NCBI GenBank assembly: GCA_009779135.1
Contig: WREW01000002.1
Span: 78,953-142,952, forward strand
Direction of reading: 5' to 3'
Length of the DNA: 64,000 nucleotides
Source of the DNA: Alphaproteobacteria bacterium
GTDB taxonomy: Bacteria > Pseudomonadota > Alphaproteobacteria > UBA9219
The notes beneath the pieces are model-generated. The model had not been told where the DNA came from and did not search any database. It saw only the letters and a list, made by a program, of their open reading frames with translations. The stretch's first letter is position 1, and each line of letters begins with the position of its first letter. Both the position numbers and the translations under genes were made by a program. Positions 6,326 to 64,000 of this stretch are shown here, one piece after another.

Positions 6326-6331
6326 ATAAAT

Positions 6332-6428
6332 TGTCATTGCGAGGCGGGCCGCAAGGCCCAACGAAGCAATCTCGGCAATATCGCAGGGATTGCCGCGTCA
6401 GGCCTAAAGGCCTTCCTCGCAATGACAG
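6332..6428. repeat. family-1 palindromic miniature repeat, copy 2
   Basis: gtcattgcgagg...cctcgcaatgacag between glmU and carD. Confidence 0.75.
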
Positions 6429-10727: not shown

Positions 10728-10825
10728 CCTTTTTACGGTAGAGCTTCTTGATTTTTCTTTAAAAATGAACAAACATAAAAGGAAGAAGGTTTGATTTAAA
10801 AGCCAATTTAAAGAAAGGAAATCTT

Positions 10826-11905: not shown

Positions 11906-12004
11906 GTCCTTCTTTAGAATAGGGGATTGTGGGGGTTTTCGGTTCTTTTGCTATCGTAAGGCGTGTGGTAGTCTAGTACAGACAATTTAAAGAAAGGAAA
12001 TCTT

Positions 12005-17364: not shown

Positions 17365-17402
17365 GGTTTTAGGTTAGACACATGACACAGGAAGGGAATC
17401 TT

Positions 17403-18305: not shown

Positions 18306-18327
18306 ATGACACAGAGAAGGGAATCTT

Positions 18328-18840
18328 ATGCGTTACGTTTTCCTCCTTATGCTTGTAACTATGTGTTTTCTGTCTGGACGCGCTATTGCGCATCTTCCAT
18401 CCGGAGCGCAAGATTTTGATTTGAGTTTTGGGGTGCCGCAGGATGATGCTCAGGCGATGGAGTGGTGGCATAGATCTGCGGCGCGGAATGCTGGGGTGGA
18501 GAATCTTTTTGGGTGGGGAGCGTTGCCGGAAGATGATGTTCGGGCGGTGGCACGGTTGCGTAAGGCGGCTGATGAGGGGCAGGCCAGTGCGCAATTTCTT
18601 TTAGGCACGATGTATGCGGATGGTCGCGGAGTGCCGCAGGATGATGAGCTGGCGATTGTGTGGTGGAGCAAGGCTGCTGCCAAGGGCGATGCCGGCGCGC
18701 AGACTAATTTAGGTATAAGTTATTTTAATGGTCTCGGCATGCCGCAGGATCAGCAGAAGGGTTGCGACTTGTTGCGGGAAGCTGGTGAGCAGGGGTTTGC
18801 TCCTGCTGTTGGGATTTATGGGAGGCTTTGTAATCCATAG
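18328..18840 (+). CDS. small secreted Sel1-repeat protein
   Basis: signal peptide; 3-4 Sel1 repeats. Confidence 0.65.
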   Translation: MRYVFLLMLVTMCFLSGRAIAHLPSGAQDFDLSFGVPQDDAQAMEWWHRSAARNAGVENLFGWGALPEDDVRAVARLRKAADEGQASAQFLLGTMYADGRGVPQDDELAIVWWSKAAAKGDAGAQTNLGISYFNGLGMPQDQQKGCDLLREAGEQGFAPAVGIYGRLCNP

Positions 18841-21977: not shown

Positions 21978-22124
21978 CTGCCGAGATTGCCGCGTCAGTC
22001 CGCCTGCGGCGGCTTTCCTGCCAATGACAGTTTTTTCTTGTCATTGCGAGGAAGGCCGTAAGGCCTGACGCGGCAATCTCTGTATTGATGTTGCGGGAAT
22101 TACTTCGTTCCTCACAATGACAAG
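21978..22124. repeat. family-1 repeat, rearranged/composite copy 3
   Basis: partial inverted half (gagattgccgcgtcag ... ccaatgacag) followed by a full gtcattgcgagg...cctcacaatgacaag unit. Confidence 0.65.
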
Positions 22125-22244
22125 AGAGGAGGGCGAGTTATTGCGGCGCGGGATGGGTTATATATTGAAACTATTAATATGGTTAATCTTATTGACATGT
22201 TCGGGCAAAAAGGCAAAATGGGCGGGGAAAGGGGGATTCCTTAG

Positions 22245-22559
22245 ATGTCAAAAGTAACGTTATCAGCAAAAGAATACAAAGAAGCTTGCTTTCACATAGT
22301 TGCTATCTCTGCGTATGTGACAATATTAAAACATGGATTTGGTGTGCAGGTACCGGAAGCCCTCAATTCTGTCGCTGTTTGGGGCGGGGCTGTTGCTCTG
22401 GGCGCAGGAATTATTGCGGAAATTATACACCAAAATCAGCGCAAAAAGGAAGAGGCCACACCGAAACCGCCCAGACTAACTTTTAAGCAACTAGCTTATG
22501 ATGAGGAACGAAAGAATAGAGGGCTTCCCCCCATTCAGCGTTCTAACAGAAGCCCGTAA
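22245..22559 (+). CDS. small membrane protein (paralog of 63455..63739)
   Basis: 104 aa, 2 TM; ~70-bp upstream region identical to that of 63455..63739. Confidence 0.5.
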   Translation: MSKVTLSAKEYKEACFHIVAISAYVTILKHGFGVQVPEALNSVAVWGGAVALGAGIIAEIIHQNQRKKEEATPKPPRLTFKQLAYDEERKNRGLPPIQRSNRSP

Positions 22560-22560
22560 A

Positions 22561-23247
22561 TCATCCGTTTTTAGGCGTTTTGGGTTTGTCTTTTTTGCTC
22601 TGATCTTTTTCTCGTTTTGGCGTTGATGATGTTTCTTCTTTCAAATTGCTTGCGCTTAGTTCTTGCCATACCGTTTTCAAAGTCTTTTTCCATGGGTCAC
22701 GAAAATTATAAGCCGTACATGTTGCAAAGGTACCCCCAGCCGCAATAAAAGGAAGTTCCTTATTTGCAGGGAACATCTTCACACATAAGCTAAAAACCGC
22801 TGTAGCAGGAAGCATGCAGTAATGCCAGAGTTTGAAAAGAGAAAACTTTTTCTTTTTCTCTTCTTGCTCAAGCTTTTCTATGTCTTGTGTCAACATATTT
22901 CCTAAAGTTTGAAAACCAACTGTCAGGGCTTTAAGGCTTACTTTATGTTCTGGAAGCTTTCTATATAAAACAGAATAATGCCAAGCAGGATTCTTCAAAA
23001 GCCGATTCCAATTTTTATATAGTTGAAAGTTGCGTTGTATTTCTCTGAAAGAGTCATCACGAAGTGTTTTTGCTTCATCGGCTGTATGGGTTTTTTGAAG
23101 AAAATTGTGAATCTCTTCTTTTGCCTTCCACAGGGAATGCTCTTTCTTCTTCAGCACAAGGGGGATTGCTTTATCATGAAGCCGCATAAGCTTTTTATGA
23201 TAAGCAAGACGCTGTTTGAAATGGCGAAAGGGTAAGGTGGTATTCAT
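22561..23247 (-). CDS. hypothetical basic membrane protein (paralog of the partial ORF at 63785..64000)
   Basis: 228 aa; AT-rich; Lys-rich; C-terminal TM segment; tail ...KTPKNG. Confidence 0.5.
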   Translation of the reverse strand: MNTTLPFRHFKQRLAYHKKLMRLHDKAIPLVLKKKEHSLWKAKEEIHNFLQKTHTADEAKTLRDDSFREIQRNFQLYKNWNRLLKNPAWHYSVLYRKLPEHKVSLKALTVGFQTLGNMLTQDIEKLEQEEKKKKFSLFKLWHYCMLPATAVFSLCVKMFPANKELPFIAAGGTFATCTAYNFRDPWKKTLKTVWQELSASNLKEETSSTPKREKDQSKKDKPKTPKNG

Positions 23248-23343
23248 GGGCTTATTGTACTCCCTTAATGTAAATATTTGATTACTTACAATGGTTTCAT
23301 GCTTAAATGTTGTTGTATTTCACTGGGTTAGGTTGGGCCTGGC

Positions 23344-36608: not shown

Positions 36609-36684
36609 GGGCCTGTAGCTCAGCTGGGAGAGCGCATCGTTCGCAATGATGAGGTCGTCGGTTCGATCCCGATCAGGTCCACCA
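36609..36684 (+). tRNA. tRNA-Ala (anticodon CGC)
   Basis: cloverleaf folds by eye; G3:U70 alanine identity pair; anticodon loop TTCGCAA; encoded 3' CCA. Confidence 0.85.
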
Positions 36685-36796
36685 TCCGTTTTTTCGTTTC
36701 ACTGTGTCGCGCTTGCTTTCGAGATAGCAATATGGTTAATATAAAATTAGGAAAGTTGCGCCGAATATGGTTACTGTTTGATTTTGGGAGGGGTAT

Positions 36797-38395
36797 ATGA
36801 TCGATGATCTCGTCCGCGAGCTGTTTGCCGGAGATTCCAAGTATTTAGAGCTGGAAAGCTTGTATGTGAAATATCTTGATTCCAGCGACTCAGGCAGTAA
36901 AGAACATGACTCTCTGATTGAAAGCATGATCGTTGAGCATCTTAAAGTTGGGGTACCTCCCTCTGAAATCTTCGGAAAGCTTATGACGATTTTGTTTCAC
37001 AAAGCGCTCACGACATCGCGCTTTCAAAAGAAGAATATGGAGCCGCAGTTAAGCGCCATCGTAAAACCCTTTTTGACCGATTTCCCGAGGCTGGAACATC
37101 TCTATGCTTTACGTCACAGCACCAACATCACGCTCAGATTCAACAGTGGTGAGTCGCTGTACAGGGTGATCTCCGACAAGAATTATGCGTCTTCTGAGTT
37201 CAGGAGTCTGCGCATTCTGGCAAACACGGCCAAGGAAATCAATGATACGACTGAACCTCTGATCGCGTTGTTCCTGTCTTCGAAAGACATTAAAAACCGA
37301 GGCAATGCCATGGCCTCAGCCGTGCATGAGCTGGATGCTTCGGTGAAGGAAATTACCAACAATATTGAAGGCGTCAACCACAACACCGATCAGGCAGTTG
37401 CCAGTATGGAAAAGGGGATTCAGGCTTCAAACCGCGCGATCTCGGCGATCACCAAGATCTCTGAAACAACACAGGATGTGTCGGGCCGTATTGAAAGCCT
37501 GTCCAAGGCGTCCGAGAAAATCGGTGAGATTTTGCAGACGATCGACGGCATTTCCAAACAGACCAATCTTCTTGCCCTTAACGCCACGATCGAGGCGGCG
37601 CGGGCGGGCGAAGCCGGTAAAGGCTTTGTGGTGGTGGCCAATGAAGTCAAGCTGCTGGCGGGGCAGACCTCCAAGGCGACTGATGATATCAAGCAGCGGG
37701 TGACCAATCTTAAAGAGGAAATGTCCAGCATCACAGCCGCGATTGCCGGCAGCAGCGAGGCGGTTGTGGAAGGCGAGACCGTTATCAAGGAATCCTCGGC
37801 GCAGATGAGCAGCGTGTCCACCCAGATTGAAAACATCCACACCAAGATGCAGGAAGCCTTGACCGTGCTGACCCAGCAAAGTCAGGCGACCTCCGAGATA
37901 TCAACATCCATTACCAGCATTTCGGAAAGCTTGACTCATAATGACACTCTGGTTTCCGATATTGTTAAGGCCATCAACACCGCAAACGAGGACATCGTCA
38001 AGAGCACCGGTTCAATCACCAACCGCAAGACTCCTGAGTTCATGGGCGAGCTTACCCGTCTTGACCATATGCTGTTTAGAAAACGGGTCACCGACACCCT
38101 TATGGGCTTCGCTGACAATCATGACCATGATCTTCCGGATCACCATAGCTGTCGTCTCGGACAATGGTATGACGGCGTGACCGACACCGACCTTAAAAAC
38201 GCGGATGCATTCAAGAGTCTGTATTCGCCGCATGAAAAGGTTCATACGCTGGCTAAAGAGGCCTTGCGTCTGCATCAAAGCAAGCAAAGCACAGATACCG
38301 TCCTGCAGAAACTTCATGAACTGACGGTCGAATACAACAAGGTTCTCACGGACTTGTCGCGCATGTCGGATTACCTTATCGCAAAGGATAAATAA
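36797..38395 (+). CDS. cytoplasmic methyl-accepting chemotaxis protein with C-terminal CZB (zinc-binding) domain
   Basis: no TM; MCP signalling domain ([31 protein letters not shown]); C-terminal H-x3-C-x-GQW ... H motif of chemoreceptor zinc-binding domains. Confidence 0.8.
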
Positions 38396-38528: not shown

Positions 38529-39233
38529 TTAAGACTTGCGTCCGGCAAAGATCTTTTTATAGGTCAGAGCGCCAAGGACAGCGCCGAGGATGGGCGCTAC
38601 CCAAAACATCCAGAGCTGCTGGAAGTAGGCTTCTGTTTCAAAAAGAGTGACAAGGGCGACTGCCGTTGAGCGGGCCGGATTCACAGACGTGTTGGTCACC
38701 GGAATGGAAATCAGGTGAATCAAGGTCAGTGCCAGACCAATCGCAATCGGCGCAAAGCCGGGTACAGCGCGGGCTGACGTTGCGCCGAGAATTACGATCA
38801 GGAAGAACCCCGTCAAAATCGTTTCCGTGAGAAACGCGGCGAGCATGGAATAATTCCCGGGCGACAAATCACCATAGCCGTTTGAAGCAAAACCGCCGAA
38901 AGTGGAGAAATCGGCCCGACCGCTTACGATCGCCGCCAAGACACATGCCGCCACAGCGCCGCCGATCACCTGCGTGATGACGTAGGGGCCAACATCTTTC
39001 CAGTCAAAACGGCCTGCTGTTGCCAATCCTATAGAGACAGCCGGATTGAAATGCCCGCCGGAAATGGCGCCGACAGCATAAGCCATCGTCAACACGGTCA
39101 GACCAAAAGCAAGGGCCACACCGACAAACCCGATCCCCAGATCAGGAAAGCCGGCTGCGATAAGGGCGCTTCCGCACCCGCCAAAGACAAGGACAAACGT
39201 CCCCAAGAACTCAGCCGCCAGCTTGGTTCTCAT
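38529..39233 (-). CDS. aqpZ: aquaporin Z
   Basis: MIP family; two NPA/NPARS motifs; 6 TM. Confidence 0.85.
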
Positions 39234-39329
39234 GGTTAACTCTTTGTTTTTCATGGTTAACTCTCCTTATGTGAGAAAAAGATAGATTCGCTTCAGGATT
39301 ATCATAAGGAAAAATAGGGGGGCTGGGAA

Positions 39330-46436: not shown

Positions 46437-46460
46437 GTCGCCTCCCCATCTAGCCCCTCT

Positions 46461-46561
46461 TGTCATTGCGAGGAAGGCCGCCGCAGGCGGATTGACGCGG
46501 CAATCTCTTCAACATCGCCGAGATTGCCGCGTCAGGCCTAAAGGTCTTCCTCGCAATGACA
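46461..46561. repeat. family-1 palindromic repeat, copy 4
   Basis: followed by a family-3 hairpin agctctccccctcgcgggggagggctttg at 46572..46600. Confidence 0.75.
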
Positions 46562-48292: not shown

Positions 48293-50992
48293 ATGTCCAC
48301 ACAAACAAAATGGGTTTATTCGTTCGGAGACGGCCATGCTGAAGGGCGCGCGGATATGCGCAATCTGCTGGGCGGCAAAGGGGCCGGTCTTGCGGAAATG
48401 TGTATGCTGGGGCTGCCTGTTCCCTCGGGCTTTACTATCACAACGGACGTCTGCACCTATTTCTACGCGCATGACCGCCTTTATCCCGAAAGCTTGAAGG
48501 GTGAAGTAAATAACGCTCTTGCGGAGGTGGAAAAAGCGGTCGGCTGCGGCTTTGGCGATCCGGCCAATCCTTTGCTGCTTTCGGTGCGCTCCGGCGCGCG
48601 GGCGTCCATGCCCGGGATGATGGATACCATCCTTAATCTCGGCCTGAATAACGCGACCGTGGAAGGTCTTGCCAAAATCAGTCAGGATGCGCGTTTTGCT
48701 TATGACAGCTATCGCCGCTTTATTCAAATGTACAGCGCGGTGGTGCTTGATATTTCTCTGCACAAGTTCGAAGACATTATCGAAGACGTCAAGCGCGCGC
48801 GCGGGTTTGCGCTTGATACCGAGATGACGGCTCATGACTGGCGCGAGGTTGTCACGGCCTATCTTCAGATCGTGCAAAAAGAACGCGGCAAAGCCTTCCC
48901 GCAGGATGTTCATGAGCAGCTCTGGGGCGCCATCGGCGCGGTGTTTGGTTCTTGGATGAACCAGCGCGCGATTACTTACCGCCGCTTGAATGATATTCCT
49001 GCGGACTGGGGCACGGCTGTTAATGTTCAGGCGATGGTGTTCGGCAATAAGGGCGAGGATTGCTGCACGGGCGTTGCCTTTACGCGCAACCCTTCCACGG
49101 GTGAGAACTCTTTTTACGGCGAATATCTTGTCAATGCTCAAGGTGAAGATGTTGTTGCCGGTATTCGCACGCCCCAGCATCTGACGATCAAGGGCAAAGA
49201 GGAAAATGACTCGGATCTTCTGGCCATGGAAGAGGTGATGCCGGATGTCTTTAAACAGCTTAATGATGTGCGCTTGAAACTGGAGTCACATTACCGCGAC
49301 ATGCAGGATATTGAGTTCACCGTCCAGCACGGCAAGCTTTATATGCTGCAAACCCGCACCGGAAAACGCACGGCGATGGCGGCTTTGCGGATTGCGGTTG
49401 AAATGGTGAAAGAAGGCACAATCGGCAAGGAAGAGGCTATTAAGCGTATCGAGCCTTCTTCATTGGATCAGCTTTTGCACCCGACACTTGATCCCAAAGC
49501 TGAGCGGCAGGTGATTGCCAAGGGTCTGCCTGCTTCCCCGGGCGCGGCTTCAGGCATTGTTGTCTTTACGGCTGACGAGGCCGAGGATATGGCGGGCAAA
49601 GGCAGAAAAGTTATTCTCTGCCGCGTTGAAACAAGCCCCGAAGATATTCACGGCATGCATGCCGCGCAGGGTATCGTGACAAGTCGCGGCGGTATGACAA
49701 GTCATGCTGCTGTTGTGGCGCGCGGCATGGGGCGCGCCTGTGTCGCGGGCGCGGGCGAGCTTTCCATGGACTATGCCAAGGGCGAGATGCGCGTGAAGGA
49801 CATCATTGTTAAAGCGGGCGAGGCCATCACGATTGACGGCGCGACGGGCGAGATCATGCTGGGCGAAGTTCCTTCGGTACAGCCCGAGCTTTCCGGCGAT
49901 TTTGCGACTTTGATGCAGTGGGCCGACAGCGTGCGCACATTGAAAGTCCGCACCAATGCCGAAACGCCTTTGGATGCGCGCACAGCCGTCAAGTTCGGCG
50001 CCGAGGGCATCGGCCTTTGCCGCACGGAACACATGTTTTTTGATACAAGTCGCATCATTGCGATGCGCGAGATGATTTTGGCGGAAAACACGCAAGGGCG
50101 GCGCAAGGCTTTGGACAAGCTTTTGCCGATGCAACAAAAGGATTTTGAGGATCTCTTCACCATTATGGACGGGCTTCCTGTGACGATCCGCCTTCTGGAC
50201 CCGCCTTTGCATGAGTTCCTGCCCAAAACAAAAGCGGAAATCGAAGATGTCGCCAAATATGCCGGTGTCGATGTGGCGCAGGTTGAACGGCGCGCGGCGA
50301 TGCTGCATGAAACCAATCCCATGCTGGGGCATCGCGGATGTAGGCTCGGCATTTCTTATCCCGAGATTTCCGAGATGCAGGCGCACGCTATTTTCGGTGC
50401 CGTGATTGCCATGAAGAAACAGGGGAAAACTGTGCTTCCTGAAGTGATGATTCCTCTTGTCGCGCTGAAAAAGGAATTGGATATTCTGGCAAAAGTCGTC
50501 CACGATGCGGCGGATGCAATGATGAAGGAGTCCGGCATAAAGTTTGACTATATGGTCGGCACGATGATCGAGCTGCCGCGCGCGGCGCTGCGCGCCGGCG
50601 GGATTGCGCAGACGGCGGAGTTCTTCAGCTTCGGCACAAATGATCTGACTCAAACGACTTTCGGTTTAAGCCGCGATGACAGCGCGTCTTTCCTTCCTGA
50701 TTATTATAGAACGGGGATTATGGCGCTGGATCCGTTTGTCACCATCGACCAAGACGGCGTGGGCGAGCTTATCAAAATCGCCTCCGAACGGGGCCGCGCG
50801 ACACGCGAGGATCTCAAGCTCGGCATATGCGGCGAGCATGGCGGCGATCCGGCCTCTATCCGCTTTTGCCACAAGCTTGGTTTGAATTATGTGTCATGCT
50901 CGCCTTACCGCGTTCCTATTGCGCGTCTGGCGGCAGCGCAGGCCGCGATCGAAAATGACCGCGACGTTCAGGCGCGGCTTAACGCGGCGTAA
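48293..50992 (+). CDS. ppdK: pyruvate, phosphate dikinase
   Basis: KWVYSFGDG N-terminus; phosphohistidine domain (GGMTSHAAVVARGMG); PEP-utilising C-terminal domain. Confidence 0.9.
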   Translation: MSTQTKWVYSFGDGHAEGRADMRNLLGGKGAGLAEMCMLGLPVPSGFTITTDVCTYFYAHDRLYPESLKGEVNNALAEVEKAVGCGFGDPANPLLLSVRSGARASMPGMMDTILNLGLNNATVEGLAKISQDARFAYDSYRRFIQMYSAVVLDISLHKFEDIIEDVKRARGFALDTEMTAHDWREVVTAYLQIVQKERGKAFPQDVHEQLWGAIGAVFGSWMNQRAITYRRLNDIPADWGTAVNVQAMVFGNKGEDCCTGVAFTRNPSTGENSFYGEYLVNAQGEDVVAGIRTPQHLTIKGKEENDSDLLAMEEVMPDVFKQLNDVRLKLESHYRDMQDIEFTVQHGKLYMLQTRTGKRTAMAALRIAVEMVKEGTIGKEEAIKRIEPSSLDQLLHPTLDPKAERQVIAKGLPASPGAASGIVVFTADEAEDMAGKGRKVILCRVETSPEDIHGMHAAQGIVTSRGGMTSHAAVVARGMGRACVAGAGELSMDYAKGEMRVKDIIVKAGEAITIDGATGEIMLGEVPSVQPELSGDFATLMQWADSVRTLKVRTNAETPLDARTAVKFGAEGIGLCRTEHMFFDTSRIIAMREMILAENTQGRRKALDKLLPMQQKDFEDLFTIMDGLPVTIRLLDPPLHEFLPKTKAEIEDVAKYAGVDVAQVERRAAMLHETNPMLGHRGCRLGISYPEISEMQAHAIFGAVIAMKKQGKTVLPEVMIPLVALKKELDILAKVVHDAADAMMKESGIKFDYMVGTMIELPRAALRAGGIAQTAEFFSFGTNDLTQTTFGLSRDDSASFLPDYYRTGIMALDPFVTIDQDGVGELIKIASERGRATREDLKLGICGEHGGDPASIRFCHKLGLNYVSCSPYRVPIARLAAAQAAIENDRDVQARLNAA

Positions 50993-51985
50993 AGGCGGTT
51001 CGATAAAAATCGGGGTCTTTTATTCTTGTCTTGATTTGCTCTGGCGTCAGGCTATGTTTAAGTGCTATGGCGGTGGCCAAGCGACGGCAATCTTGATCTG
51101 AAAGGTTATTTAGGCCGCCTTTTTGAAGTTTTTTCAATATCGCTATCCCGTTGAAGATAGGGTTGTCGGCATGGATGATGGTGTTTACGTCATCGTAATT
51201 TTCCTGAAGCTTATAAAGCGTTCGCGCAACATGGGGCCAATTTTGACGTTTAATATGGGATAGAAGACTATTTGCCTCTTTCATGCTTTCATAAGTGTCG
51301 TGTTCGACAATGAATCTGCGGGGTACGCCATCATTCAGATCCGTTAAGAACGCAAGGACGTCTTCTACCAGCCTATCCGTGTTTTTGCCTAACTTCGCCA
51401 CTTTAATCATGGCATAAACATCGGCTATGTTTTCATTGAGATGTTTGCCGGCTTTTTCATTTTGATCTGTGTAGAAAAACTCATGAAACAACATATGGGG
51501 GGAGGTAGAATCGAGCAAGACAATAACATTGCTTTGATCAGCGGAAGCGTTGGGCATTTTCAATATAAGCGGGGTTTTAAAAATGCGGATAGGAAACTCG
51601 TTTCCGATTGAAGCTTGAAAAGCGCTTAAGCCCATGGACTTTGCTAGAAGTATCATGGACGCAAGTGTAGAAATCTTGTTGCGTGACATGGAAAGTTGTG
51701 CATCTTCCAAAATCCCACAAAGAAGAAAATGCTGGTCACCTGAAAGATTTGGCATTTTGCTGCCGTCAATAATGATGATCTTTTGTCTAGACGCTTTTCT
51801 ATCTCGGGTATATTCCGAAAGACTTCATTGACAGCCTTGTGCCAGTCGGATGTCGGGTTTTTCTCAGGGGACAGCGTGACATCATGAAAAGGCAGCCCCC
51901 TTCCCATAAGCGAAGGCAACCCAAATGTTACCGCCGCAGCCGCAATAACCGACCAATTTATTATCTTTTTAACGGAAGCTTTCAT
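50979..51985 (-). pseudogene. family-X paralog A, frameshifted and motif-degenerate
   Basis: signal-peptide exon (51985..~51770) and body (51755..50979) lie in different frames; 1-nt loss inside an A5 run; the HExxH equivalent is HEFFY. Confidence 0.6.
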
Positions 51986-52066
51986 GCCCGCATTGTACTT
52001 TTTTCTGCGAAGATTTCATTAGTTTTAATAGTTTCATTGTGAGTATGGTTATTTTTCCCTCTCTCT
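51986..52066 (-). promoter_or_regulatory. conserved family-X promoter module (copy for paralog A)
   Basis: GAAAAATAACCATA...GAAACTATTAAAA(C/G)TAATGAAA...; -10-like TACAAT. Confidence 0.5.
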
Positions 52067-52170
52067 TGTCATTGCGAGGAGGGCCGCCGCAGGCGGATTG
52101 ACGCGGCAATCTCGGCAACATCAAGAGCGCGATTGCCGCGTCAGGCCTTATGGCCTTCCTCGCAATGACA
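52067..52170. repeat. family-1 palindromic repeat, copy 5
   Basis: directly upstream of the paralog A promoter module. Confidence 0.75.
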
Positions 52171-52187
52171 AGTGGGGGGGGGCCGCG

Positions 52188-53507
52188 TTATTCCGGTGTG
52201 AGCTTGGGGATGGGGACTGTGACTGTGCTCTTGCTGGGCCTTTGTGCTTCTTCTTCTTTTATGCTTTCATTGGCGCGTATAGCCGGTTTAAATGCGGGAT
52301 TATTCGCTTCCGGATCGTCCTTATACCAATAGTAAGTCTTATTCCATGAATCTCTGGCATCCCCTTTTGGCACGTCGTCGCCAAGCGCGGCGTCTTTTAA
52401 ATCTTTGATCTGTTCCGGCGTCAGACTATGTGTGCTTGCTATAAGACCGGCTATGCGATGGCACGTTTTATCCGGAAGTTTTTCAAAACCGTTGTCTTTG
52501 AGTTCTTTCAATATCGCTTGCTTTTCCTGATCGTCGAAGGTAGGCTTATCGGCCTCGATTATGTTATAGCCCTTCTTGTTATTGTATTCTTCTTGAAGTC
52601 CAGAAAGGATTTTATCAACCCTGTCCCATTTTTTATGTTTAGCTTGTATACAAAAATCTTTCGTTACCGACAGGCTTTTATAGGCGTTGTAAGCTATAAA
52701 GTTGTCAGCCTTATCGGCAGCATTCGGATCGCTGTAGAGCTTGTTTCTAAAATTGTAAGTTGAACGCAGGATTCCATCTTCTGCTACTCCTAAGGTACTT
52801 ACGCCTAATTGCTCCATTTTAATCATGGCGTAAGATTCTGCCATATTTTCCTTGTGATTTGTTCGGAGGGACTGGAGCATTGCAGGCGTATTTTTATCGA
52901 TGTCGCCTGTAGGAGCATAAAAAACATTTAAGAAAGGATTGATCGTCTTATCCTGTCCGTCTATTTGTGTTGGAACCGACTGGGTTAAATGGCCAACCTC
53001 GTGAAACAGCGTCTGAATATTTTTCTTATCTACGACAACAACGCTGGTTCGATCTGAAAAGGGATTATCCTCAACCGAAGTTCCTAAAAAAGGTGTGGAA
53101 CGATAGTTTCCAATTGAAGTGCAAAAACCGCCCAAGTTTTTTTCTTCGACTTCAAGCAACGCGGCTGAAAGGCGGTTAATCTTGCCTTCCGCTATGGGAG
53201 CATTTGAGTTTTTTAGAACCTTGCTAAATCCATCATGTGACGGTTTTTCACCCTTCAAAGCTTCTTTTATTTTGCCATAGTCAAGAAAGACAACTTCTTG
53301 CCCTATCATCTTTTCCGTTTCGCCTTTATTCCGAAAGACTTCATTGACAGCTCTGCTCCATTCGGGGTTTTTATCAGGGAAGATCAGGATATCGTGAAGG
53401 GGGGCTTTTTCTGCAAGGGAAGGCGTTGCCAACAGCGTTGCCGAGGCCACCGCAAGGGCTGCCGATTTGATGCTTTTGGTTGCCATAGGTTTATCGTCGT
53501 TTTCCAT
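52188..53507 (-). CDS. family-X secreted HExxH protein, paralog B
   Basis: signal peptide; FHEVGHL; ENMAESYAMIKMEQLG; C-terminal ...STVTVPIPKLTPE; begins 8 bp after the paralog C stop. Confidence 0.7.
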   Translation of the reverse strand: MENDDKPMATKSIKSAALAVASATLLATPSLAEKAPLHDILIFPDKNPEWSRAVNEVFRNKGETEKMIGQEVVFLDYGKIKEALKGEKPSHDGFSKVLKNSNAPIAEGKINRLSAALLEVEEKNLGGFCTSIGNYRSTPFLGTSVEDNPFSDRTSVVVVDKKNIQTLFHEVGHLTQSVPTQIDGQDKTINPFLNVFYAPTGDIDKNTPAMLQSLRTNHKENMAESYAMIKMEQLGVSTLGVAEDGILRSTYNFRNKLYSDPNAADKADNFIAYNAYKSLSVTKDFCIQAKHKKWDRVDKILSGLQEEYNNKKGYNIIEADKPTFDDQEKQAILKELKDNGFEKLPDKTCHRIAGLIASTHSLTPEQIKDLKDAALGDDVPKGDARDSWNKTYYWYKDDPEANNPAFKPAIRANESIKEEEAQRPSKSTVTVPIPKLTPE

Positions 53508-53515
53508 GGCCTAGG

Positions 53516-55063
53516 CTATTGCGGTGTGAGTTTGGGGGTGGGAGCCGTGACTGTGCTCCTGCCGGCGGGTCTTTGCGGTTCGTCAAAGCTCGCCACCTTC
53601 AAAGGCTCCGCCGCCACGCCCAAAGGCTCCGCCGCTTTTTTTGCCGGTTCAAAAGCGGTGTTGTTGTCTTTATCCGCTACAGCGGCTTCTTGCGCTTCTT
53701 TTTTTATGCTTTCATGGGCAAGTATGGCCGGTTTAAATGCGGTGTTATTGTCTTTATCCACCACAGCGTCTCCTTGTTTAAGAAGGTCGTACGTGTCACT
53801 CCATGCTTTGGTGGCGGCCTTTCCTTGCGGCACCTTTCCCAAGGTTGCGTTGTCAAAATCGTTCATATCAGACAAAGACGGGCTATGCTTTGTTGCCAAA
53901 GCTGACGCAAGAGAAAGGCTGTCTTTGTCTGTAAGAGCATTCAGTCCACCTGTTTCTAACTTGGCAAAAATAGCTTGTCCATTGAAGGGATGTTTAACCT
54001 CGGATCGTGATTCCGTGTTGTCATAAGTTTCTTGAAGACCATCAAGCTTTGACTTAACATTATCCATTTTCCCGTTCTTAATATCGTCCAGAAGAGAGAT
54101 TGTCGCAAACAGAGTTTCATGGGTGTTATGCCCTTGGTACGACATCGGGAGTTCTTGACTCGTTGAGAGGTAAGTTGAGTCAAAAAGACGGGCTTGCGCT
54201 TGTTTAGTGGCAGCTGTGTAATTTCCTTTTTGCGCCATTTTAATCGCGGCGTAAGAATCTGACATATTTTCCTGGCGATTTTCCCGCAGCTTCCAAGCTT
54301 CACCTTTATTATCTGTTTTAGGGACTTTCATGAAAAACGCGGGTTCCTCTACTTCAGTATTGTAAAGATGCGCTTTTTCGTGAAATGCTGTAAAAGCGGC
54401 CGCTTCATCATATGGCTGTTTTACAAAATTAGAATCTGTTTTTGAAAAATCAACGCCTGTACCTTCGGGACAAGACAACCTCTCACGCCAAACAGTATTT
54501 CCGTCTTTGTTATTTTCACCGAACGCGACAAAAACTTTTATGTTGTTACCATCTCTGTCTTTTGTTGAAATAACACCAGAGTTGACCTGATCGAAAGAAG
54601 GGTCACATACTGGTTCGTATCCTATATCCTGTCTTAAATGTCTTCCTATACTAGCCGCGAGTATGGCACTCTCTCCCTTTTCCGCAGAAACGCCTGAATC
54701 CTCCAGAATGCCCTTTACGGCAGAGTCGTCGTTTTCCCTTTCACTTAAAATCTTTAAAATCTCATCTACGTCATGTTTTCCTGATTCCCCTTTGCCATGC
54801 GCCAGCGCGGCAGATCTTTTTTTCACTTCTCGCCCATCAATAAAATAAATCTTTTGTCCTATCGCCTGTTCTATTTCTTCTTTTTGAGAAACAATTTCTT
54901 TTTTAGCCTCATCCACCAAGGATATGGGCTTTACTGCGACAGGATTGTCGGGAATCTTTGCTGCTCCGGCAGGCAGCGGTAATAAGCTACATGCCGCTAC
55001 GGCTGTAGCGGCTGTCAGGTTTACTACCCTTTTGAGCAGGGGTTTTTTATCGTCGTTTTCCAT
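53516..55063 (-). CDS. family-X secreted HExxH protein, paralog C
   Basis: signal peptide; FHEKAHL; ENMSDSYAAIKMAQ; C-terminal ...STVTAPTPKLTPQ. Confidence 0.7.
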   Translation of the reverse strand: MENDDKKPLLKRVVNLTAATAVAACSLLPLPAGAAKIPDNPVAVKPISLVDEAKKEIVSQKEEIEQAIGQKIYFIDGREVKKRSAALAHGKGESGKHDVDEILKILSERENDDSAVKGILEDSGVSAEKGESAILAASIGRHLRQDIGYEPVCDPSFDQVNSGVISTKDRDGNNIKVFVAFGENNKDGNTVWRERLSCPEGTGVDFSKTDSNFVKQPYDEAAAFTAFHEKAHLYNTEVEEPAFFMKVPKTDNKGEAWKLRENRQENMSDSYAAIKMAQKGNYTAATKQAQARLFDSTYLSTSQELPMSYQGHNTHETLFATISLLDDIKNGKMDNVKSKLDGLQETYDNTESRSEVKHPFNGQAIFAKLETGGLNALTDKDSLSLASALATKHSPSLSDMNDFDNATLGKVPQGKAATKAWSDTYDLLKQGDAVVDKDNNTAFKPAILAHESIKKEAQEAAVADKDNNTAFEPAKKAAEPLGVAAEPLKVASFDEPQRPAGRSTVTAPTPKLTPQ

Positions 55064-55150
55064 GACCTTATTATACTATTTTTTTGTGAATCTTTTATTA
55101 CTTTTAATAGTTTCGCTTTAAATATGGTTATTTTTCATTAACTTATGTGA
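55064..55150 (-). promoter_or_regulatory. conserved family-X promoter module (copy for the C-B operon)
   Basis: TTAATGAAAAATAACCATATTTAAAGCGAAACTATTAAAAGTAATAAAAGATTCAC...AGTATAATAAGGTC then ATG. Confidence 0.55.
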
Positions 55151-55155
55151 TTTTC

Positions 55156-55293
55156 CTTGTCATTCTCGGGGCTTGCGGATGACGAGAGGGGAGATTGTCA
55201 TTGCGAGGAAGGCCTTCAGGCCTGACGCGGTAATCTCTGCAACATCGCCGAGATGGCGCCCGTTGGGCCTTGCGGCCCGCCTCGCAATGACAG
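55156..55293. repeat. composite repeat: family-2 fragment plus family-1 copy 6
   Basis: gtcattctcggggcttgcggatgacgag followed by gtcattgcgagg ... cctcgcaatgacag. Confidence 0.7.
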
Positions 55294-55311
55294 TTAGGGG
55301 GGGCTTGGGGC

Positions 55312-56481
<1,170 letters not shown>

Positions 56482-56487
56482 TTACGG

Positions 56488-59387
<2,900 letters not shown>

Positions 59388-59486
59388 TTAAGCATCTTCT
59401 TTCGCTTTAAAAACTTGCCGAAAACAAAAGGTTAAAGAGTTTAGCGCATGGCCGCAAGCCAGTCCAAAGGAAAGAGGGGTCGTCCT

Positions 59487-59569
59487 ATAAGTTAATGAAA
59501 AATAACCACGTTTAGAGTGAAATTATTAAAAGTAATAAAAGATTTATCAAAAAGAGGTATAATAGGGCC
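59487..59569 (+). promoter_or_regulatory. conserved family-X promoter module (copy for paralog D)
   Basis: TTAATGAAAAATAACCACGTTTAGAGTGAAATTATTAAAAGTAATAAAAGATTTATC...GGTATAATAGGGCC then GTG. Confidence 0.55.
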
Positions 59570-60859
59570 GTGAAAGACGACGTTAAAAAATCCTCGCCGC
59601 TCGTTAGATTTACGGCGGCTACGATGGCTGCGCTCACGGTTGGGCTTTTGCCTGCTGATGCAAAAGGCGGGTATGATATTATGTACTCCCCTGACCCGAA
59701 ATCTGAAGCGGGGAAAGTTGTAAAGCAGCTCGCTCCGCATATGGCTGCGGTGGAGGAAGTGACAGGACAAGAGTTTCTTCCTATTATCGACGGCAGCAAA
59801 ATCGATAACATCTTTAACCAAAAGCAAATGCCTTTCAATCTATCTAATCTCCGCGATGTTTTAGAAAACGCGGACTTCCCTACACCCTTAACGCCCAACA
59901 AAATAGGAAATATTGCATTCCATATACTTCAGGCAAAGGCGCTTGAGTATAGAGCTTTGCATGTTTCAGTCGGGAAATCGCACTTGGTTGTCTTATTTGA
60001 TCCTTCTGATCCCAAAATACTGGGTCACGAGATCGTAGGACATGGGAATCAAGAATATGCAAAGGACGGTAACTTACACTCTTCTGTTTTAAAAGTCCCT
60101 GATGTTTCGAAACCCCAGATTTCTTTAAAAGCTTTTGACAAGATCTCGGATCCTGACCAGCTTTTCCTTTTAACAAACTACCGCGAAAATATGGCGGATG
60201 TTGCCGACATGCTTACAAGGGCGCAAAGGGGCGAAGGGATAAAAGGCATGGCGGCTGAAAATCTTTTGCAATCTACGATCCTTTTTAGAAAAGTGCTTTA
60301 TAACAATCCGCAGGCTTTGGATTACCAAGTCACAGAACATAATACTTACAGAAGTCTGGCGGCGACAGAAACTTTTCTGTCCCATGTTAAAGAGAAAGAC
60401 TGGCCAAAGGTTGCGCGAGCTCTTTATACAATCCAAGAAAAATACAACGAGATGACGGCTTTGGATGTTTTGATTCCTGTTGATAATCCCATCTTCCCCG
60501 GGCGGGTGATTATGGACAAGCTCCAAGAAGAAGGCGACATAAAAAATCTTTCACCGCAAGAAACCGCTCATCTGGCTGCCGGTTTTGCGTGCATGTATAG
60601 TCTTAATCCGCAAGAGGGCAAGGATTTTAACGCCGCCGCGCTTGGCGATGAAGCACCCGTAGGAGCCGCCCGCGGCGCGTGGCTTCAGGTAGGCCGTATG
60701 CTGAACAATCCGGTATTAAAGAATGATCCTGAGATGCAGGAACTCCGGAATGATCCCGCCTATCAACAGGTCACGAGCGCGCGTGAAAGCATAGAACCGC
60801 CTGCCAGAAAACCGCGTGGCCATAAGGTTTCCTCTTCTTCCAAATATACGCCGCAATAA
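59570..60859 (+). CDS. family-X secreted HExxH-like protein, paralog D (GTG start)
   Basis: signal peptide; GHEIVGHG (HExxxH variant); ENMADVADM; C-terminal ...KYTPQ. Confidence 0.65.
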   Translation: MKDDVKKSSPLVRFTAATMAALTVGLLPADAKGGYDIMYSPDPKSEAGKVVKQLAPHMAAVEEVTGQEFLPIIDGSKIDNIFNQKQMPFNLSNLRDVLENADFPTPLTPNKIGNIAFHILQAKALEYRALHVSVGKSHLVVLFDPSDPKILGHEIVGHGNQEYAKDGNLHSSVLKVPDVSKPQISLKAFDKISDPDQLFLLTNYRENMADVADMLTRAQRGEGIKGMAAENLLQSTILFRKVLYNNPQALDYQVTEHNTYRSLAATETFLSHVKEKDWPKVARALYTIQEKYNEMTALDVLIPVDNPIFPGRVIMDKLQEEGDIKNLSPQETAHLAAGFACMYSLNPQEGKDFNAAALGDEAPVGAARGAWLQVGRMLNNPVLKNDPEMQELRNDPAYQQVTSARESIEPPARKPRGHKVSSSSKYTPQ

Positions 60860-60865
60860 ACAGAC

Positions 60866-61648
60866 TTAATCAATCAGGCCGTTCTTCCTAAGAAGATCGT
60901 AGCTGTCCTGATACCAGCGGCTGCCGGGGAAGTTGTGGCCCAAAACGGCGGCGGTTTTTTTGGCTTCATCCAAAATGCCCAGAGCGAGATAGGATTCAAC
61001 AAGCCGGTGCAAGGCTTCGGGAACGTGGCTGGTGGATTGGTAGCGCTCGACCACCGTGCGGAAACGGCCTACGGCTGCTGTGAAAAGTTTTTGTGTCATG
61101 TAATTGCGGCCGACTTCCATCTCGGCGCCGGCAAGGTGATCGTTGACGAGGTCAATTTTAAGTCTGGCATCACGCGCATAGGCCGTGTCAGGAAAACGAC
61201 GGATGATGGTCTGCAGCTCGGACAGCGCAAGATGCGCATAAGTCTGGTCACGCCGGACATCGGCGATGCGCTCATAATCGCTTAACGCCCGCAGATAGTA
61301 GGCATAGGCGATATATTCGCTCCCCGGGTGAAGGCGGATAAAGCTCTCCAGCGCTTTGATGGCCGCGTCATAATCGAGCGCCTCATACATGGCGTAAGCG
61401 CTCATCAACTGGCCGCGCGGGGCCCATTGCGAATATGGGTGCTGGCGCTCAATTTCCTCGAACTGCGTCGCAGCCTCCCGAAACAGGCGCTTTTCCATAA
61501 GGTTGAGGCCGTCATTGTAAAGAGCCTCGGCGGTTTTTTCGGACGGCTCCTCGGGCTTTTGGGAAGCGCATCCAACAAGAAGCCCCAAAGCCAGAAAAGC
61601 TACGGCCAAACGCGAAAAAGAGAAGGGTGGGAACATGCGCAGCATCAA
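60866..61648 (-). CDS. bamD: outer membrane protein assembly factor BamD
   Basis: lipoprotein signal (LLVGC); TPR-like YfiO/ComL domain. Confidence 0.8.
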   Translation of the reverse strand: MMLRMFPPFSFSRLAVAFLALGLLVGCASQKPEEPSEKTAEALYNDGLNLMEKRLFREAATQFEEIERQHPYSQWAPRGQLMSAYAMYEALDYDAAIKALESFIRLHPGSEYIAYAYYLRALSDYERIADVRRDQTYAHLALSELQTIIRRFPDTAYARDARLKIDLVNDHLAGAEMEVGRNYMTQKLFTAAVGRFRTVVERYQSTSHVPEALHRLVESYLALGILDEAKKTAAVLGHNFPGSRWYQDSYDLLRKNGLID

Positions 61649-61764
61649 CCTTTGAATCAGTTAGGTTCTTCTTTTACAACAGACCTTAGGCCGCTGCAAG
61701 ATTCTTGACTTTTTCGGTGTTTTTCCAGCATTATAAAAGGCATGTTTTCAAAGGGTAACCCTGT

Positions 61765-61998
61765 ATGCAGGTTCGTATTTTTCGCCCCGCCGCAAGCTTG
61801 ACGCAAGGCTCGCCTTGGGCCGATGCGTGGCGGCTTGAGGTTGTCAGCGCGATCCAGAAAAGGCCCGAGCCTTTCATGGGCTGGCTTGCGGCTGAGGACG
61901 GGCAAAGCACCATGAAAGGGCGCCTTGCTTTTGATACGCAGCAAGCGGCCATAGCCTTTGCGCAAAAGCAGGGCTGGTTGTTTGAGGTTGAGGAATAA
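61765..61998 (+). CDS. ETC complex I NDUFS4-like (AQDQ-family) small protein
   Basis: 77 aa; RIFRPAASLTQGS...WRLEV...PFMGW...RLAFDTQQAAIAFAQKQGW-FEV matches the bacterial NDUFS4-homolog pattern. Confidence 0.65.
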   Translation: MQVRIFRPAASLTQGSPWADAWRLEVVSAIQKRPEPFMGWLAAEDGQSTMKGRLAFDTQQAAIAFAQKQGWLFEVEE

Positions 61999-62005
61999 GG
62001 CCGGT

Positions 62006-63106
62006 TTATTGTAGCGTGTGGGCAGGGAAAGAAGTCGCAATTTTTGTACCTCTAACAGGTTCCTGCGATGCTTTCATGGTGCTTTCATAAGCGCGCACAG
62101 CCGGTTGAAATGCGGGATCATCCTTTGCCACATGGTCTTTCAGTAAATAATAAGTATGGCACCATTTTTTTTCGGCAGCGTCTTTTGGCGTTTCATCTCC
62201 AACTACAGCATCCATACAATCCTGTATATCTTTTTGCGTCTTGCCATTTCTGGCGGCCATAGCGGCAGCCAAAAGACAGCACTGTTTGTTGGTAAGCTTT
62301 TTTATGTCGCCGTCTTCAAGAACTTGCTCTATCTCCTGCCAGTTGACGGTGGAAATGTCGGACATAATAACGGTATTCTCGCGGTTCAAGGCATCGTAGC
62401 TTTCTTGAAGATCCAAAAAGATTGACCGGCTTACATTTTCATCCCTTCGGGATAAAAGGACGTTCATGCTCCCTATGCTTTCATGCGTGTCATGTTCTAT
62501 TCTGGACAATATTTCGTCCGGATTGTTTTTGTGCAAGGCTCTGGCAAAATAAGTTGCGGCCAGAAGATTTTGTTTTGCTATTCCCCGTGTATCGCCTTCG
62601 CATTGCGCCATTTTAATGACGGCCAAGCCATCGGACATATGTTCTTTATAATTTGTTTCTTTGGAAGCAATGAAATCTTGCGAGGTAGGATCATCTGCAG
62701 GAATCCGCAAGAAATGGTTGATGAGTTTGGCGCGTCCGTCCACTGATGTCCGAGTCAATATAACAGCGTGGCAAAGTTCGTGAAACATTGTAAAAGGATC
62801 TTTATCATTAATAACAACAAAGGTCGTCAGATCCTCTAACTTGCCAAGCGTGGCGCAAAAACCTGCCTCGTTCCTGTGTTTAAATATTCTGGCTTCAAGC
62901 GCATCAATTTTGTGCTGCGTCATATGAGGCAGTGAATCTTTCAGAACTCCGTGAGGATTATTTTGCAGTTTTGTGCCGTCAATGATGACAATCTCGCGCC
63001 CCAGCCATGTTTCCATCTCGCTCTTTAAAAGCAAGACTTCATTGATAGCCCTATCCGAAACGGATGTTGGGTTTTCTACAGTGGAGAATGTGATGTCATG
63101 TTTCAT
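62006..63106 (-). CDS. family-X HExxH protein, paralog E (no obvious signal peptide)
   Basis: FHELCHAVIL; EHMSDGLAVIKMAQ; C-terminal ...AHTLQ. Confidence 0.65.
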   Translation of the reverse strand: MKHDITFSTVENPTSVSDRAINEVLLLKSEMETWLGREIVIIDGTKLQNNPHGVLKDSLPHMTQHKIDALEARIFKHRNEAGFCATLGKLEDLTTFVVINDKDPFTMFHELCHAVILTRTSVDGRAKLINHFLRIPADDPTSQDFIASKETNYKEHMSDGLAVIKMAQCEGDTRGIAKQNLLAATYFARALHKNNPDEILSRIEHDTHESIGSMNVLLSRRDENVSRSIFLDLQESYDALNRENTVIMSDISTVNWQEIEQVLEDGDIKKLTNKQCCLLAAAMAARNGKTQKDIQDCMDAVVGDETPKDAAEKKWCHTYYLLKDHVAKDDPAFQPAVRAYESTMKASQEPVRGTKIATSFPAHTLQ

Positions 63107-63220
63107 AGCTCATTCCTTAGAATTATGGCCTTATTATACCTCATTTTCATGAATATTTCATTACTTTCAATAGTTTCTAGCCTGAATATGCTTATATTTC
63201 ATTGACTTACGATTCTTTTG
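63107..63220 (-). promoter_or_regulatory. conserved family-X promoter module (copy for paralog E)
   Basis: TCAATGAAATATAAGCATATTCAGGCTAGAAACTATTGAAAGTAATGAAATATTCATG...GGTATAATAAGGCC. Confidence 0.5.
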
Positions 63221-63342
63221 GGCTGGCTTGCGGTGGGGGGCGGGTAAAGCACTATGAGGGGACTCCTTGCTTTTGGTCTGCTCGCCGCCGCCATCAAGTT
63301 CGCGCAAAAATAGGGGTGGTTGTTTGAGGTTGGGGAATAAAG
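63221..63342 (+). pseudogene. degenerate duplicate of the NDUFS4-like gene 3' end (duplication footprint)
   Basis: ~80% identical to 61879..62000, including the stop context gttgtttgaggttg(a/g)ggaataa. Confidence 0.65.
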
Positions 63343-63454
63343 TTGGGTTATTTAGGTTTGGGATGGGCTATATATTGAAACTATTAATATGGTTAATCTC
63401 ATTGACATGTTTGGGGTAGAAAAGCAAAGTAGTTGGGGAAAGGAGGATTCCTTG

Positions 63455-63739
63455 ATGTCAAAATCATCAGAGATCTTAATCGATTTGTTTAAAACGGCTG
63501 CTAAAATTACGGGTACAATGGCTGTAATTATGAGCGTGCCGGCTTTATTCAATTATACGGGTGTAGAGGTGACAAAGCTTCCTTTTCCTGCTCAACTTGT
63601 TATATTTGGTGCCCATGTCGGCTTGTGTATGTGGGGAGTAAGTAATTTGCTAAAAATTGATTCAGATGTACAGCGCCGTTACAAGCAAAAGAAACCTGAA
63701 TCTTCAGGGGGGAAGTTTTCAGTATTGACTTTAAAATAA
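63455..63739 (+). CDS. small membrane protein (paralog of 22245..22559)
   Basis: ~94 aa, 2 TM; shared upstream module gggatgggytatatattgaaactattaatatggttaatctyattgacatgtt. Confidence 0.5.
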   Translation: MSKSSEILIDLFKTAAKITGTMAVIMSVPALFNYTGVEVTKLPFPAQLVIFGAHVGLCMWGVSNLLKIDSDVQRRYKQKKPESSGGKFSVLTLK

Positions 63740-63784: not shown

Positions 63785-64000
63785 TTATCCGTTTTTAAGT
63801 TTGCTGGAAACGTTTTTCTTGCCCAGCGGTTTTTCTTTTCGTTCTGAGGCTGCTGGATTTTCTTTTGGTGTAGAGAAGGGTGACAGAAAGCTGTTTTTTC
63901 TTTTTTTCTGGCTAAGCTCTTTCATCGTTTTTTTCCACAAATCTTTCAAGTGATGGCGATAAATGGTTGCGCCCATCACCGCACTGGCTGCAATAAGGAC
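63785..64000 (-). CDS. partial (runs off the window) paralog of the 22561..23247 protein
   Basis: VLIAASAVMGATIYRHHLKDLWKKTMKELS aligns with LPFIAAGGTFATCTAYNFRDPWKKTLKTVWQELS; both end in KNG. Confidence 0.5.
   Translation of the reverse strand, partial: VLIAASAVMGATIYRHHLKDLWKKTMKELSQKKRKNSFLSPFSTPKENPAASERKEKPLGKKNVSSKLKNG

Follow-up and report, generated by a model that had tools for sequence, protein, structure and literature searches.

A promoter-like module shared by two unrelated orphan gene families of an uncultured alphaproteobacterium

Introduction

In Borrelia burgdorferi, the "upstream homology box" of the erp/ospEF-related genes is a conserved promoter that stands before diverging lipoprotein paralogs and is thought to co-regulate them; we know of no leaderless geometry described for it. 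The nod box, recognized by NodD, and the vir box, recognized by VirG, are long conserved cis elements found before several operons, each serving one DNA-binding protein. Promoter reuse between genes has also been described, with rapid rewiring or co-regulation as its proposed role (Matus-Garcia, Nijveen & van Passel 2012; PMC3575422). Here we describe a module of about 80 bp in a 64,000-nt stretch of contig WREW01000002.1 (positions 78,953 to 142,952, hereafter the window) from an uncultured alphaproteobacterium. The phenomenon of promoter reuse being already known, this module is a further example of it, one that ties together two, perhaps three, orphan families: family X (paralogs A to E), family Y (Y1 and Y2) and, possibly, a pair of small-protein genes.

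Work on other alphaproteobacteria provides the frame for reading such an element. In Sinorhizobium meliloti 171 leaderless mRNAs have been mapped, all of which begin with AUG, non-AUG starts being reported as inefficient (PMC3616915), and leaderless mRNAs are documented in Caulobacter too (PMC4117421). The regulator MucR is reported to bind and repress AT-rich accessory genes (PMC9779718; PMC4083442), and the target of MucR/Ros proteins is AT-rich DNA with T-A steps and an AAATA core in or near the promoter (PMC9779718). Motif definitions are available for the regulator CtrA, whose activating sites lie near -35 (PMC6180460), as well as a consensus for the SciP/CtrA half-site (PMC4083442).

Results

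Six copies of one upstream module

The module is probably a promoter cassette of the housekeeping-sigma type, copied before at least six genes or operons that belong to two unrelated, genome-specific, low-GC families. Its positions are given in gene orientation, counted back from the aligned start codon, and the DNA read in the search for it amounts to 83 kb of this one genome (the window and flanking contig). The DNA upstream of paralogs A, C, D and E is alignable from about -83 to the start codon, and a comparison of the flanking contig with the window revealed two extra copies, F and G, before the genes of family Y. The copies are as follows.

51986..52064, minus strand: module A; -10 TACAAT at 51992..51997; distal part ends at about -73, at an element resembling repetitive extragenic palindromic (REP) sequences
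55064..55145, minus strand: module C, before the C-B gene pair; TATAAT at 55070..55075, then 6 nt, then ATG at 55063
59488..59569, plus strand: module D; TATAAT at 59558..59563, then 6 nt, then GTG at 59570
63127..63209, minus strand: module E; TATAAT at 63133..63138; the aligned codon is ATA, 63126..63124
23248..23330, minus strand: module G, before Y1; TACAAT at 23254..23259, then 6 nt, then ATG at 23247
window-equivalent 64505..64587 (8520..8602 of L128), past the window end, minus strand: module F, before Y2

A preliminary description of this stretch had proposed an alignable module of roughly 80 bp upstream of A, C, D and E, and both the six-way alignment and the local DNA matches bear this out. 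The latter cover 107 nt at 83% identity between C and D, 86 nt at 79% between C and E, 119 nt at 74% between D and E, and 79 nt at 78% between A and C; they span about -83 to +1/+23, the first few codons being included in some pairs. No DNA match that C, D or E has to the other X loci is stronger than the module, and the same is true of A once matches to repeat elements are set aside. Aligned coding sequences of family X share 46-56% of their nucleotides, and 40-51% at third positions, against 64-84% in the module core for every X pair; no codon position of the genes that follow the module is as well conserved. A 26-nt core word has three matches at three or fewer mismatches where none is expected, and nhmmer finds each copy in the 83 kb with an E-value of 1e-16 to 1e-20, by a model trained on those same copies. 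When only the four X modules are used for the model, F and G are still detected, at E-values of 2.4e-12 and 7.7e-10, with no other match in the 83 kb. Identity between X and Y modules is 65-77%, with the exception of E and F, which are 82.5% identical over 114 nt (-112..+1).

The module had been assigned to every family-X locus, which is correct at the level of the four transcription units and not at that of the five genes, B having no module of its own. Its location outside coding sequence is upheld, and it is non-coding and promoter-like. Co-duplicated coding sequence, which the preliminary description had also discounted as the source of the similarity, does not account for it, because the module precedes the non-homologous family Y as well (profiles of Y and X are unrelated, with an hhalign probability of 0.1%).

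Searches beyond this genome returned chance matches. The GAAAYTATTRAAANTAATRAAA pattern gave at least 120 single chance matches in AT-rich GTDB genomes, none of which, among the matches listed, extends past 22-27 nt; the pattern is too AT-rich, and the scan is uninformative about the source genome. A pattern combining the core with the -10 hexamer had two chance matches, both in AT-rich coding DNA, in metagenome contigs of the Joint Genome Institute, a set that does not include the source contig. The window sequence itself is present with 100% identity in the ENA assembly ERZ27257295 and in the Logan run SRR10512950.

Module F also touches a neighbouring gene. The uvrC call starts at an ATG inside this module on the opposite strand (window-equivalent 64556..64643; L128 8464..8551), where the central block of the module reads TACAAT-N6-ATG on the uvrC strand. 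A likelier true start for uvrC is an ATG 29 codons further on (MTKPSSKN).

Anatomy of the module

The sequence G-TA(T/C)AAT (GTAYAAT) at -13..-7 is invariant in all six copies. The -10 hexamer within it, at -12..-7, is TATAAT in C, D and E and TACAAT in A, F and G, and exactly 6 nt separate it from the aligned start codon in every copy, a G+C-rich spacer that reads AAGGYC, AGGGCC, AAGCCC or GCGGGC. The perfect TATAAT previously placed some 8-12 bp before the start is thus found in C, D and E, whereas A has TACAAT and the position is fixed, not variable. After the -10 region, the best-conserved part of the six-copy alignment is an AT-rich block, GAAAYYATTRWAASTAATNAAAKMTT, at -51..-26, and a distal (A/G)TGAAA(A/T)A(T/C)AA at about -76..-64 is kept throughout. 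At the -35 position A and E have ATGAAA, which agrees with TTGACA at 4/6 positions and lies 16-17 nt upstream of the -10 hexamer; a promoter scan passes both (E 10/12, A 9/12) and fails the other four, which have ATAAAA or ATCAAA (3/6).

The modules are 20-35% GC in a window of 52% GC, and on reading their sequences each contains at least one AAATA core with T-A steps. Each module has the word GAAACTATT once, and its orientation is invariably that of the gene; the inverted word copies reported earlier prove to be genes lying on the opposite strand.

Several other features were considered and rejected. A structured RNA leader or riboswitch is discounted by the lack of a conserved fold (RNAalifold -0.06 kcal/mol, five AU pairs, no covariation; sense-strand z-scores of +1.0, +0.7 and -0.7, not significant) and of an Rfam match to the module, the matches in the window being RNase P RNA and a tRNA only. 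Neither terminal inverted repeats nor a conserved hairpin are present in the module copies. A conserved GANTC (CcrM) site was dismissed on reading the sequences, with GATTC in C and GAATC distal to E and F.

Start-codon geometry

In A, C, D, F and G the first base of the start codon is, as a matter of geometry, the seventh nucleotide after the -10 hexamer. Since the hexamer ends 6 nt before the codon and transcription usually starts about 7 nt after the -10, leaderless mRNAs are expected: RNA polymerase would start on the A or G of the start codon, giving leaderless transcripts for A, C (with B), D, Y1 and Y2, and for E one with a 20-nt leader and a Shine-Dalgarno site. The very short or leaderless mRNAs suggested in the preliminary description fit this geometry, E with its 20-nt leader included. 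In E the aligned start codon is ATA and an ATG lies 20 nt downstream, at 63106, preceded at 7 nt by AAGGAA, which was gained where the ancestral start codon was lost.

A Shine-Dalgarno-like site (within -18..-4) precedes 37 of the 48 called genes; A, B and C are without one, and in D, E, F and G the sole GAGG/GGAG sits 12-17 nt before the (aligned) start codon. That codon is ATG in A, C, F and G and GTG in D, whose next in-frame ATG, at codon 19, also lacks a Shine-Dalgarno site. Other promoters of the window, TTGACA-17-CATAAA for tRNA-Ala and TTACGA-17-TATAAT for an OmpA-like gene, use hexamers of the same kind, so a TATAAT-type -10 fits this organism. In ccrM, which lacks a Shine-Dalgarno site, 10 nt separate a TATAAT from the ATG, an indication that very short leaders occur elsewhere in the genome.

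Family X

Family X comprises five paralogs, with 28-35% protein identity among them.

50979..51985, minus strand: paralog A; two overlapping frames, 51653..51985 and 50979..51755; FHEFFY replaces HExxH
52188..53507, minus strand: paralog B; 439 aa, HEVGH; without module
53516..55063, minus strand: paralog C; 515 aa, HEKAH, signal-peptide-like N-terminus
59570..60859, plus strand: paralog D; 429 aa; its GTG aligns with the ATG of C and B; HEIVGH breaks the HExxH spacing
62006..63106, minus strand: paralog E; 366 aa, HELCH; without N-terminal signal region

The ATG of B lies 8 nt after the stop codon of C, and the two are presumably co-transcribed. Paralog A is probably a decaying pseudogene, unless its frameshift is an assembly error; the split frame is accompanied by the weakened -10 TACAAT. 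HExxH, which in combination with a downstream acidic ligand is the mark of zinc metalloproteases, is found in B, C, E and a distant relative, P0006, with the H, the E and a downstream E invariant, and is broken in D and A. Family X has no match in Pfam or NCBIfam, and a structure model of it (predicted local distance difference test, pLDDT, 75) has no fold match in the PDB. A profile search of 1.84 billion representative proteins returned the family's own five members and P0006. We regard family X as putative secreted HExxH proteins.

P0006, a protein of 484 aa with HENGH and a signal-peptide-like N-terminus, is encoded on another metagenome contig of 55-60% GC (L121 6001..7455), between RNase E and HtpG. 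The AT-rich DNA upstream of its gene does not resemble the module and has a TTATAAT some 45 nt ahead of the ATG.

Family Y and the small-protein cassettes

Family Y consists of two members only, among 5.8 billion proteins, which share 49% identity and are putative membrane proteins. Near each of them lies a small-protein gene.

22561..23247, minus strand: Y1; 228 aa orphan with a hydrophobic stretch (by reading the sequence)
3' part 63785..64000, minus strand: Y2; 239 aa; the gene exits the window, with its start at window-equivalent 64504 (L128 8603)
22137..22244, plus strand: promoter and 5' leader of small-protein gene 1; gene 22245..22559, 104 aa
63347..63454, plus strand: promoter and 5' leader of small-protein gene 2; gene 63455..63739, 94 aa

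The genes of X, Y and the small proteins have a GC content of 38-47% and a third-position GC (GC3) of 35-46%, compared with a GC3 of 56-65% in neighbouring housekeeping genes; they are low-GC orphans specific to this genome. The two small-protein promoters are about 85% identical to each other, their proteins 22%. In both, GAAACTATT, in gene orientation, is followed by AATATGGTTAAT beside TTGACA, AATATGGTTAAT being a perfect ATTAACCATA on the other strand.

The preliminary description had noted that GAAACTATT and AATATGGTTA recur in both small-protein promoters and had proposed a single regulon. Word searches agree on the recurrence (AATATGGTTA has five exact copies where about 0.1 is expected by estimate), and the shared words are real, but the link drawn from them is weak: TAACCATATT is inverted relative to the gene in the small-protein promoters and not conserved across the six modules, AATATGGTTA in the modules is oriented opposite to the cassettes and not conserved, and the module model meets the small-protein promoter at an E-value of 0.86, a level at which homology is not detectable. 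A firmer link of the cassettes to the module is that each small gene is convergent with a module-bearing Y gene.

At 36729..36773 of the window AATATGGTTA occurs twice, 35 nt apart (TTAACCATATT and GTAACCATATT on the other strand), with tRNA-Ala (36609..36684) on one side and a chemoreceptor gene (36797..38395; MCPsignal and CZB domains) on the other; these words are candidate CtrA/SciP half-sites.

Traces of recombination around the copies

A pseudo-copy of the 3' end of an NDUS4-like gene lies directly distal to module E.

63219..63352, plus strand: NDUS4-like 3'-end pseudo-copy; 76% identity over 134 nt to 61877..62010

The NDUS4-like gene itself is at 61765..61998, and its duplicated 3' end lies beyond gene E and the module, as if E and its promoter, bracketed by direct repeats, had been inserted or duplicated there. 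Modules C, D and F, too, are flanked by the first 20 or so nucleotides of the pseudo-copy (GGGCTGGCTTGCGG). Between E and F no base differs over 44 nt (-112..-69), after which identity drops to about 66%. The NDUS4-derived flank and the E-F mosaic point to spread or homogenisation as a DNA segment, through duplication, recombination or gene conversion. Copies would have been spread or homogenised by recombination, and not by gene duplication alone.

Intergenic repeats of about 100 nt, G+C-rich and palindromic (TGTCATTGCGAGG...CCTCGCAATGACA), are 66-95% alike and resemble REP sequences or miniature inverted-repeat transposable elements (MITEs). They are located as follows, strands not being assigned.

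4127..4231: REP/MITE-like repeat
6326..6427: REP/MITE-like repeat
22037..22125: REP/MITE-like repeat
46457..46561: REP/MITE-like repeat
52063..52170: REP/MITE-like repeat
55194..55292: REP/MITE-like repeat

Such repeats adjoin modules A and C and the first small-protein promoter, and the copy at 52063 replaces the distal end of module A. Modules C (55064..55145, minus) and D (59488..59569, plus) form inverted repeats, 84% identical, around 4.3 kb that comprise ccrM, a GGDEF gene and ligA, a segment that would be inverted if the two modules recombined; no sign of inversion was found in the available assemblies.

Other features of the window

The dnaA gene is located at 2659..4122, with rpsT adjoining it in the gene calls of an overlapping contig, which makes it probable that the replication origin is nearby. 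Cumulative GC skew climbs almost monotonically across the window. Several large genes at 10800..13300 and 15700..18800 consist of Sel1 repeats, of which Pfam finds 8-10 in each of the two genes scanned, and the DNA shows 108-nt periodic repeats of 60-89% identity.

Discussion

Predicted control of the module

The poor -35 and the conserved -51..-26 block suggest a DNA-binding protein acting at that block, on which expression would then depend. Candidates for such a protein would be an activator that replaces the -35 contacts, a protein such as MucR that silences AT-rich DNA, or both, and the common block would place X and Y under shared control. The low GC and GC3 of these genes and the AAATA cores make MucR-type silencing of X, Y and the small genes a reasonable guess; a MucR domain was not seen among the proteins scanned within 83 kb of the genome. 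A bolder proposal, which we consider tentative and rather doubtful, is that the module is a portable "plug-in" cassette in which the transcription start site coincides with the start codon and no ribosome-binding site is needed, repeatedly recombined before new or acquired low-GC orphans, and that X, Y and (through their pairing) the small proteins form one regulon under a protein recognising the -51..-26 block.

Several points weigh against reading the module as a promoter cassette with leaderless transcripts. All statements on initiation and regulation are inferred from sequence geometry. Agreement with the -35 consensus extends to 3-4 positions of six. Phased A-tracts or curvature were looked for and rejected, the 9.5-11.5 bp periodicity being not significant (combined p ~0.10) and the Y copies lacking two of the tracts. 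The mRNA of D would be leaderless with a GUG start, a type unseen in the S. meliloti set (PMC3616915). The available assemblies show 100% identity throughout, and the module did not turn up in any related genome, which leaves constraint without an independent evolutionary test; phylogenetic footprinting is impossible because X has one distant relative only and Y two members only. Lastly, AAGGGAG stands 12 nt before the ATG in Y1 and Y2; were the transcript to begin further upstream, this might serve as a Shine-Dalgarno site, albeit at a poor spacing.

Alternative explanations

This AAGGGAG, lying inside the module, is also among the observations favouring an alternative in which the module is transcribed from further upstream as an AU-rich 5' leader, acting as a translational enhancer or as a site for a regulatory RNA or protein. 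The module is AU-rich and unstructured, which is the kind of leader bound by ribosomal protein S1, and the first few codons are part of the similarity in some pairs. Nevertheless, such a leader is very improbable: there is neither a conserved structure nor an Rfam match, C is without a Shine-Dalgarno site and the GGAG/GAGG of the D, E and Y copies is 12-17 nt off, and no better conserved promoter lies upstream, the copies differing beyond about -83, where A has a REP-like element. The invariant hexamer, moreover, matches the -10 consensus and in A and E is preceded, at 16-17 nt, by a hexamer of the -35 type. The similarity might instead have no regulatory meaning, with a segmental duplication, gene conversion or a miniature mobile element as its source and TATAAT as an incidental part of it, which we hold to be unlikely, although somewhat more is to be said for it. 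The E-F mosaic, 44 nt of identity followed by about 66%, is what such a process would leave, a neutral-looking scrap of NDUS4 accompanies C, D, E and F, REP-like elements adjoin A and C, and putative mobile promoters with no assigned function are common in bacterial genomes (PMC3575422). However, all six copies face a gene at the same distance from its start codon, which would be odd for random insertion; conservation peaks at the -10 and the -51..-26 block and not at the module ends, where terminal inverted repeats are lacking, as is a conserved hairpin; and the cross-family identity of 65-77% implies that most copies are not recent, with the -10 and its spacing still intact.

A promoter driven by CtrA, or by CtrA and SciP, would tie the module to the cell cycle, with TTAA-N7-TAACCAT as an off-consensus CtrA box; this reading is quite unlikely. 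The same organism does have a canonical TTAACCGTAAGTTAAC box before ccrM, TTAACCAT is enriched in the window (seven found, 1.3 expected), the ATAACCATA of modules A and C differs at one position from the SciP consensus (G/A)TTAACCAT(A/G) (PMC4083442), and a perfect ATTAACCATA occurs in the small-protein promoters and before the chemoreceptor gene at 36797. In the module, by contrast, the TTAA half-site, and hence TTAA-N7-TAAC, is found in C and D only (2/6), the spacing of its half-sites falls one base short of TTAA-N7-TTAA, and conservation is among the lowest of the module in the TAACCAT columns (TAACCAC, TAAGCAT, TAACAAT, CAACAAC). The candidate lies at -78..-60, a segment most of which module A already lacks, while activating CtrA sites lie near -35 (PMC6180460). 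The SciP half-site (G/A)TTAACCAT(A/G) is absent from the modules, with 2-4 mismatches in D, E, F and G, and occurs at 22179 and 63389 in the small-protein promoters and at 36732 before the chemoreceptor gene; three of the seven TTAACCAT matches merely overlap ATG codons. The near-CtrA box proposed in the preliminary description is accordingly withdrawn: with a candidate in 2/6 copies, at the wrong half-site spacing and the wrong place, poorly conserved, and with TTAA-N7-TTAA(C) not found in the modules, a CtrA box in the module was rejected. The canonical box of ccrM serves as an internal positive control for that search. The reading we prefer remains that of a housekeeping-sigma-type promoter cassette.

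Two other genes of the window deserve mention in the CtrA context. The sole canonical CtrA box of the window is the TTAACCGTAAGTTAAC at 56476..56491, in the -35 region of ccrM, 11 nt upstream of TATAAT (56459..56464), with the gene start at 56448; its TTAA-N7-TTAA(C) spans 56477..56491. This looks like a promoter of the classic CtrA-activated type with a very short leader, and a CtrA box at the -35 region of ccrM is an arrangement familiar from Caulobacter. An aquaporin-like (MIP) gene starts at 39228..39262 (minus strand) with a 21-nt spaced duplication of GAGTTAACCATGA that yields two in-frame ATGs and explains two of the seven TTAACCAT matches.

Significance

Were the cassette reading true, the module would be a natural example of a -10 box and a start codon moving as one unit, so that one recombination event would provide an orphan gene with initiation of both transcription and translation. 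The genes behind the module, for lineage-specific secreted (HExxH) and membrane proteins, would then make up a candidate regulon, a gene set that would be a place to look for functions in host or environment interaction. The conserved 26-bp block is a concrete bait for the regulator. Practical value is limited, the organism being known from metagenome assemblies only and both families being confined to it.

Comparison with known systems

The module is akin to the putative mobile promoters, with which it shares similar upstream DNA before non-paralogous coding sequences and no obvious known mobile element (PMC3575422). Under the criterion of that survey (at least 80% identity over at least 50 nt, before non-paralogous genes) E and F qualify, while other X-Y pairs reach 72-77%. 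The survey took -150..-50, at 80% or more over 50 nt, and excluded the -10 region by design, whereas the conserved part of the module is -83..-1, including the -10 and the start-codon junction, and most cross-family pairs are 65-77% identical; within X, furthermore, the genes are distant paralogs, unlike the non-paralogous genes of the survey.

As in the alphaproteobacterial leaderless mRNAs, the -10 of the module ends 6 nt before the start, with no usable Shine-Dalgarno site; unlike the 171 mapped in S. meliloti, those of the module are predicted from sequence, and copy D would begin with GUG. The modules resemble MucR/Ros targets in having 20-35% GC and AAATA cores and in preceding low-GC genome-specific genes, a criterion of low specificity, but MucR binds with little sequence specificity, and an 83-bp conserved sequence would take more than such binding to explain.

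With the upstream homology box of Borrelia the module has in common a near-constant promoter region before diverging genes for surface or secreted proteins, and it differs in organism, in sequence and in replicon setting, which in Borrelia is that of plasmids. Like the nod and vir boxes it is a long conserved element before several operons, and the distal GTCAATGAAAT of E and F loosely resembles the vir box (TNCAATTGAAAY) minus one base. It matches neither consensus, however, and its conserved block, unlike those boxes, overlaps the -35 and runs through the -10 to the start codon itself.

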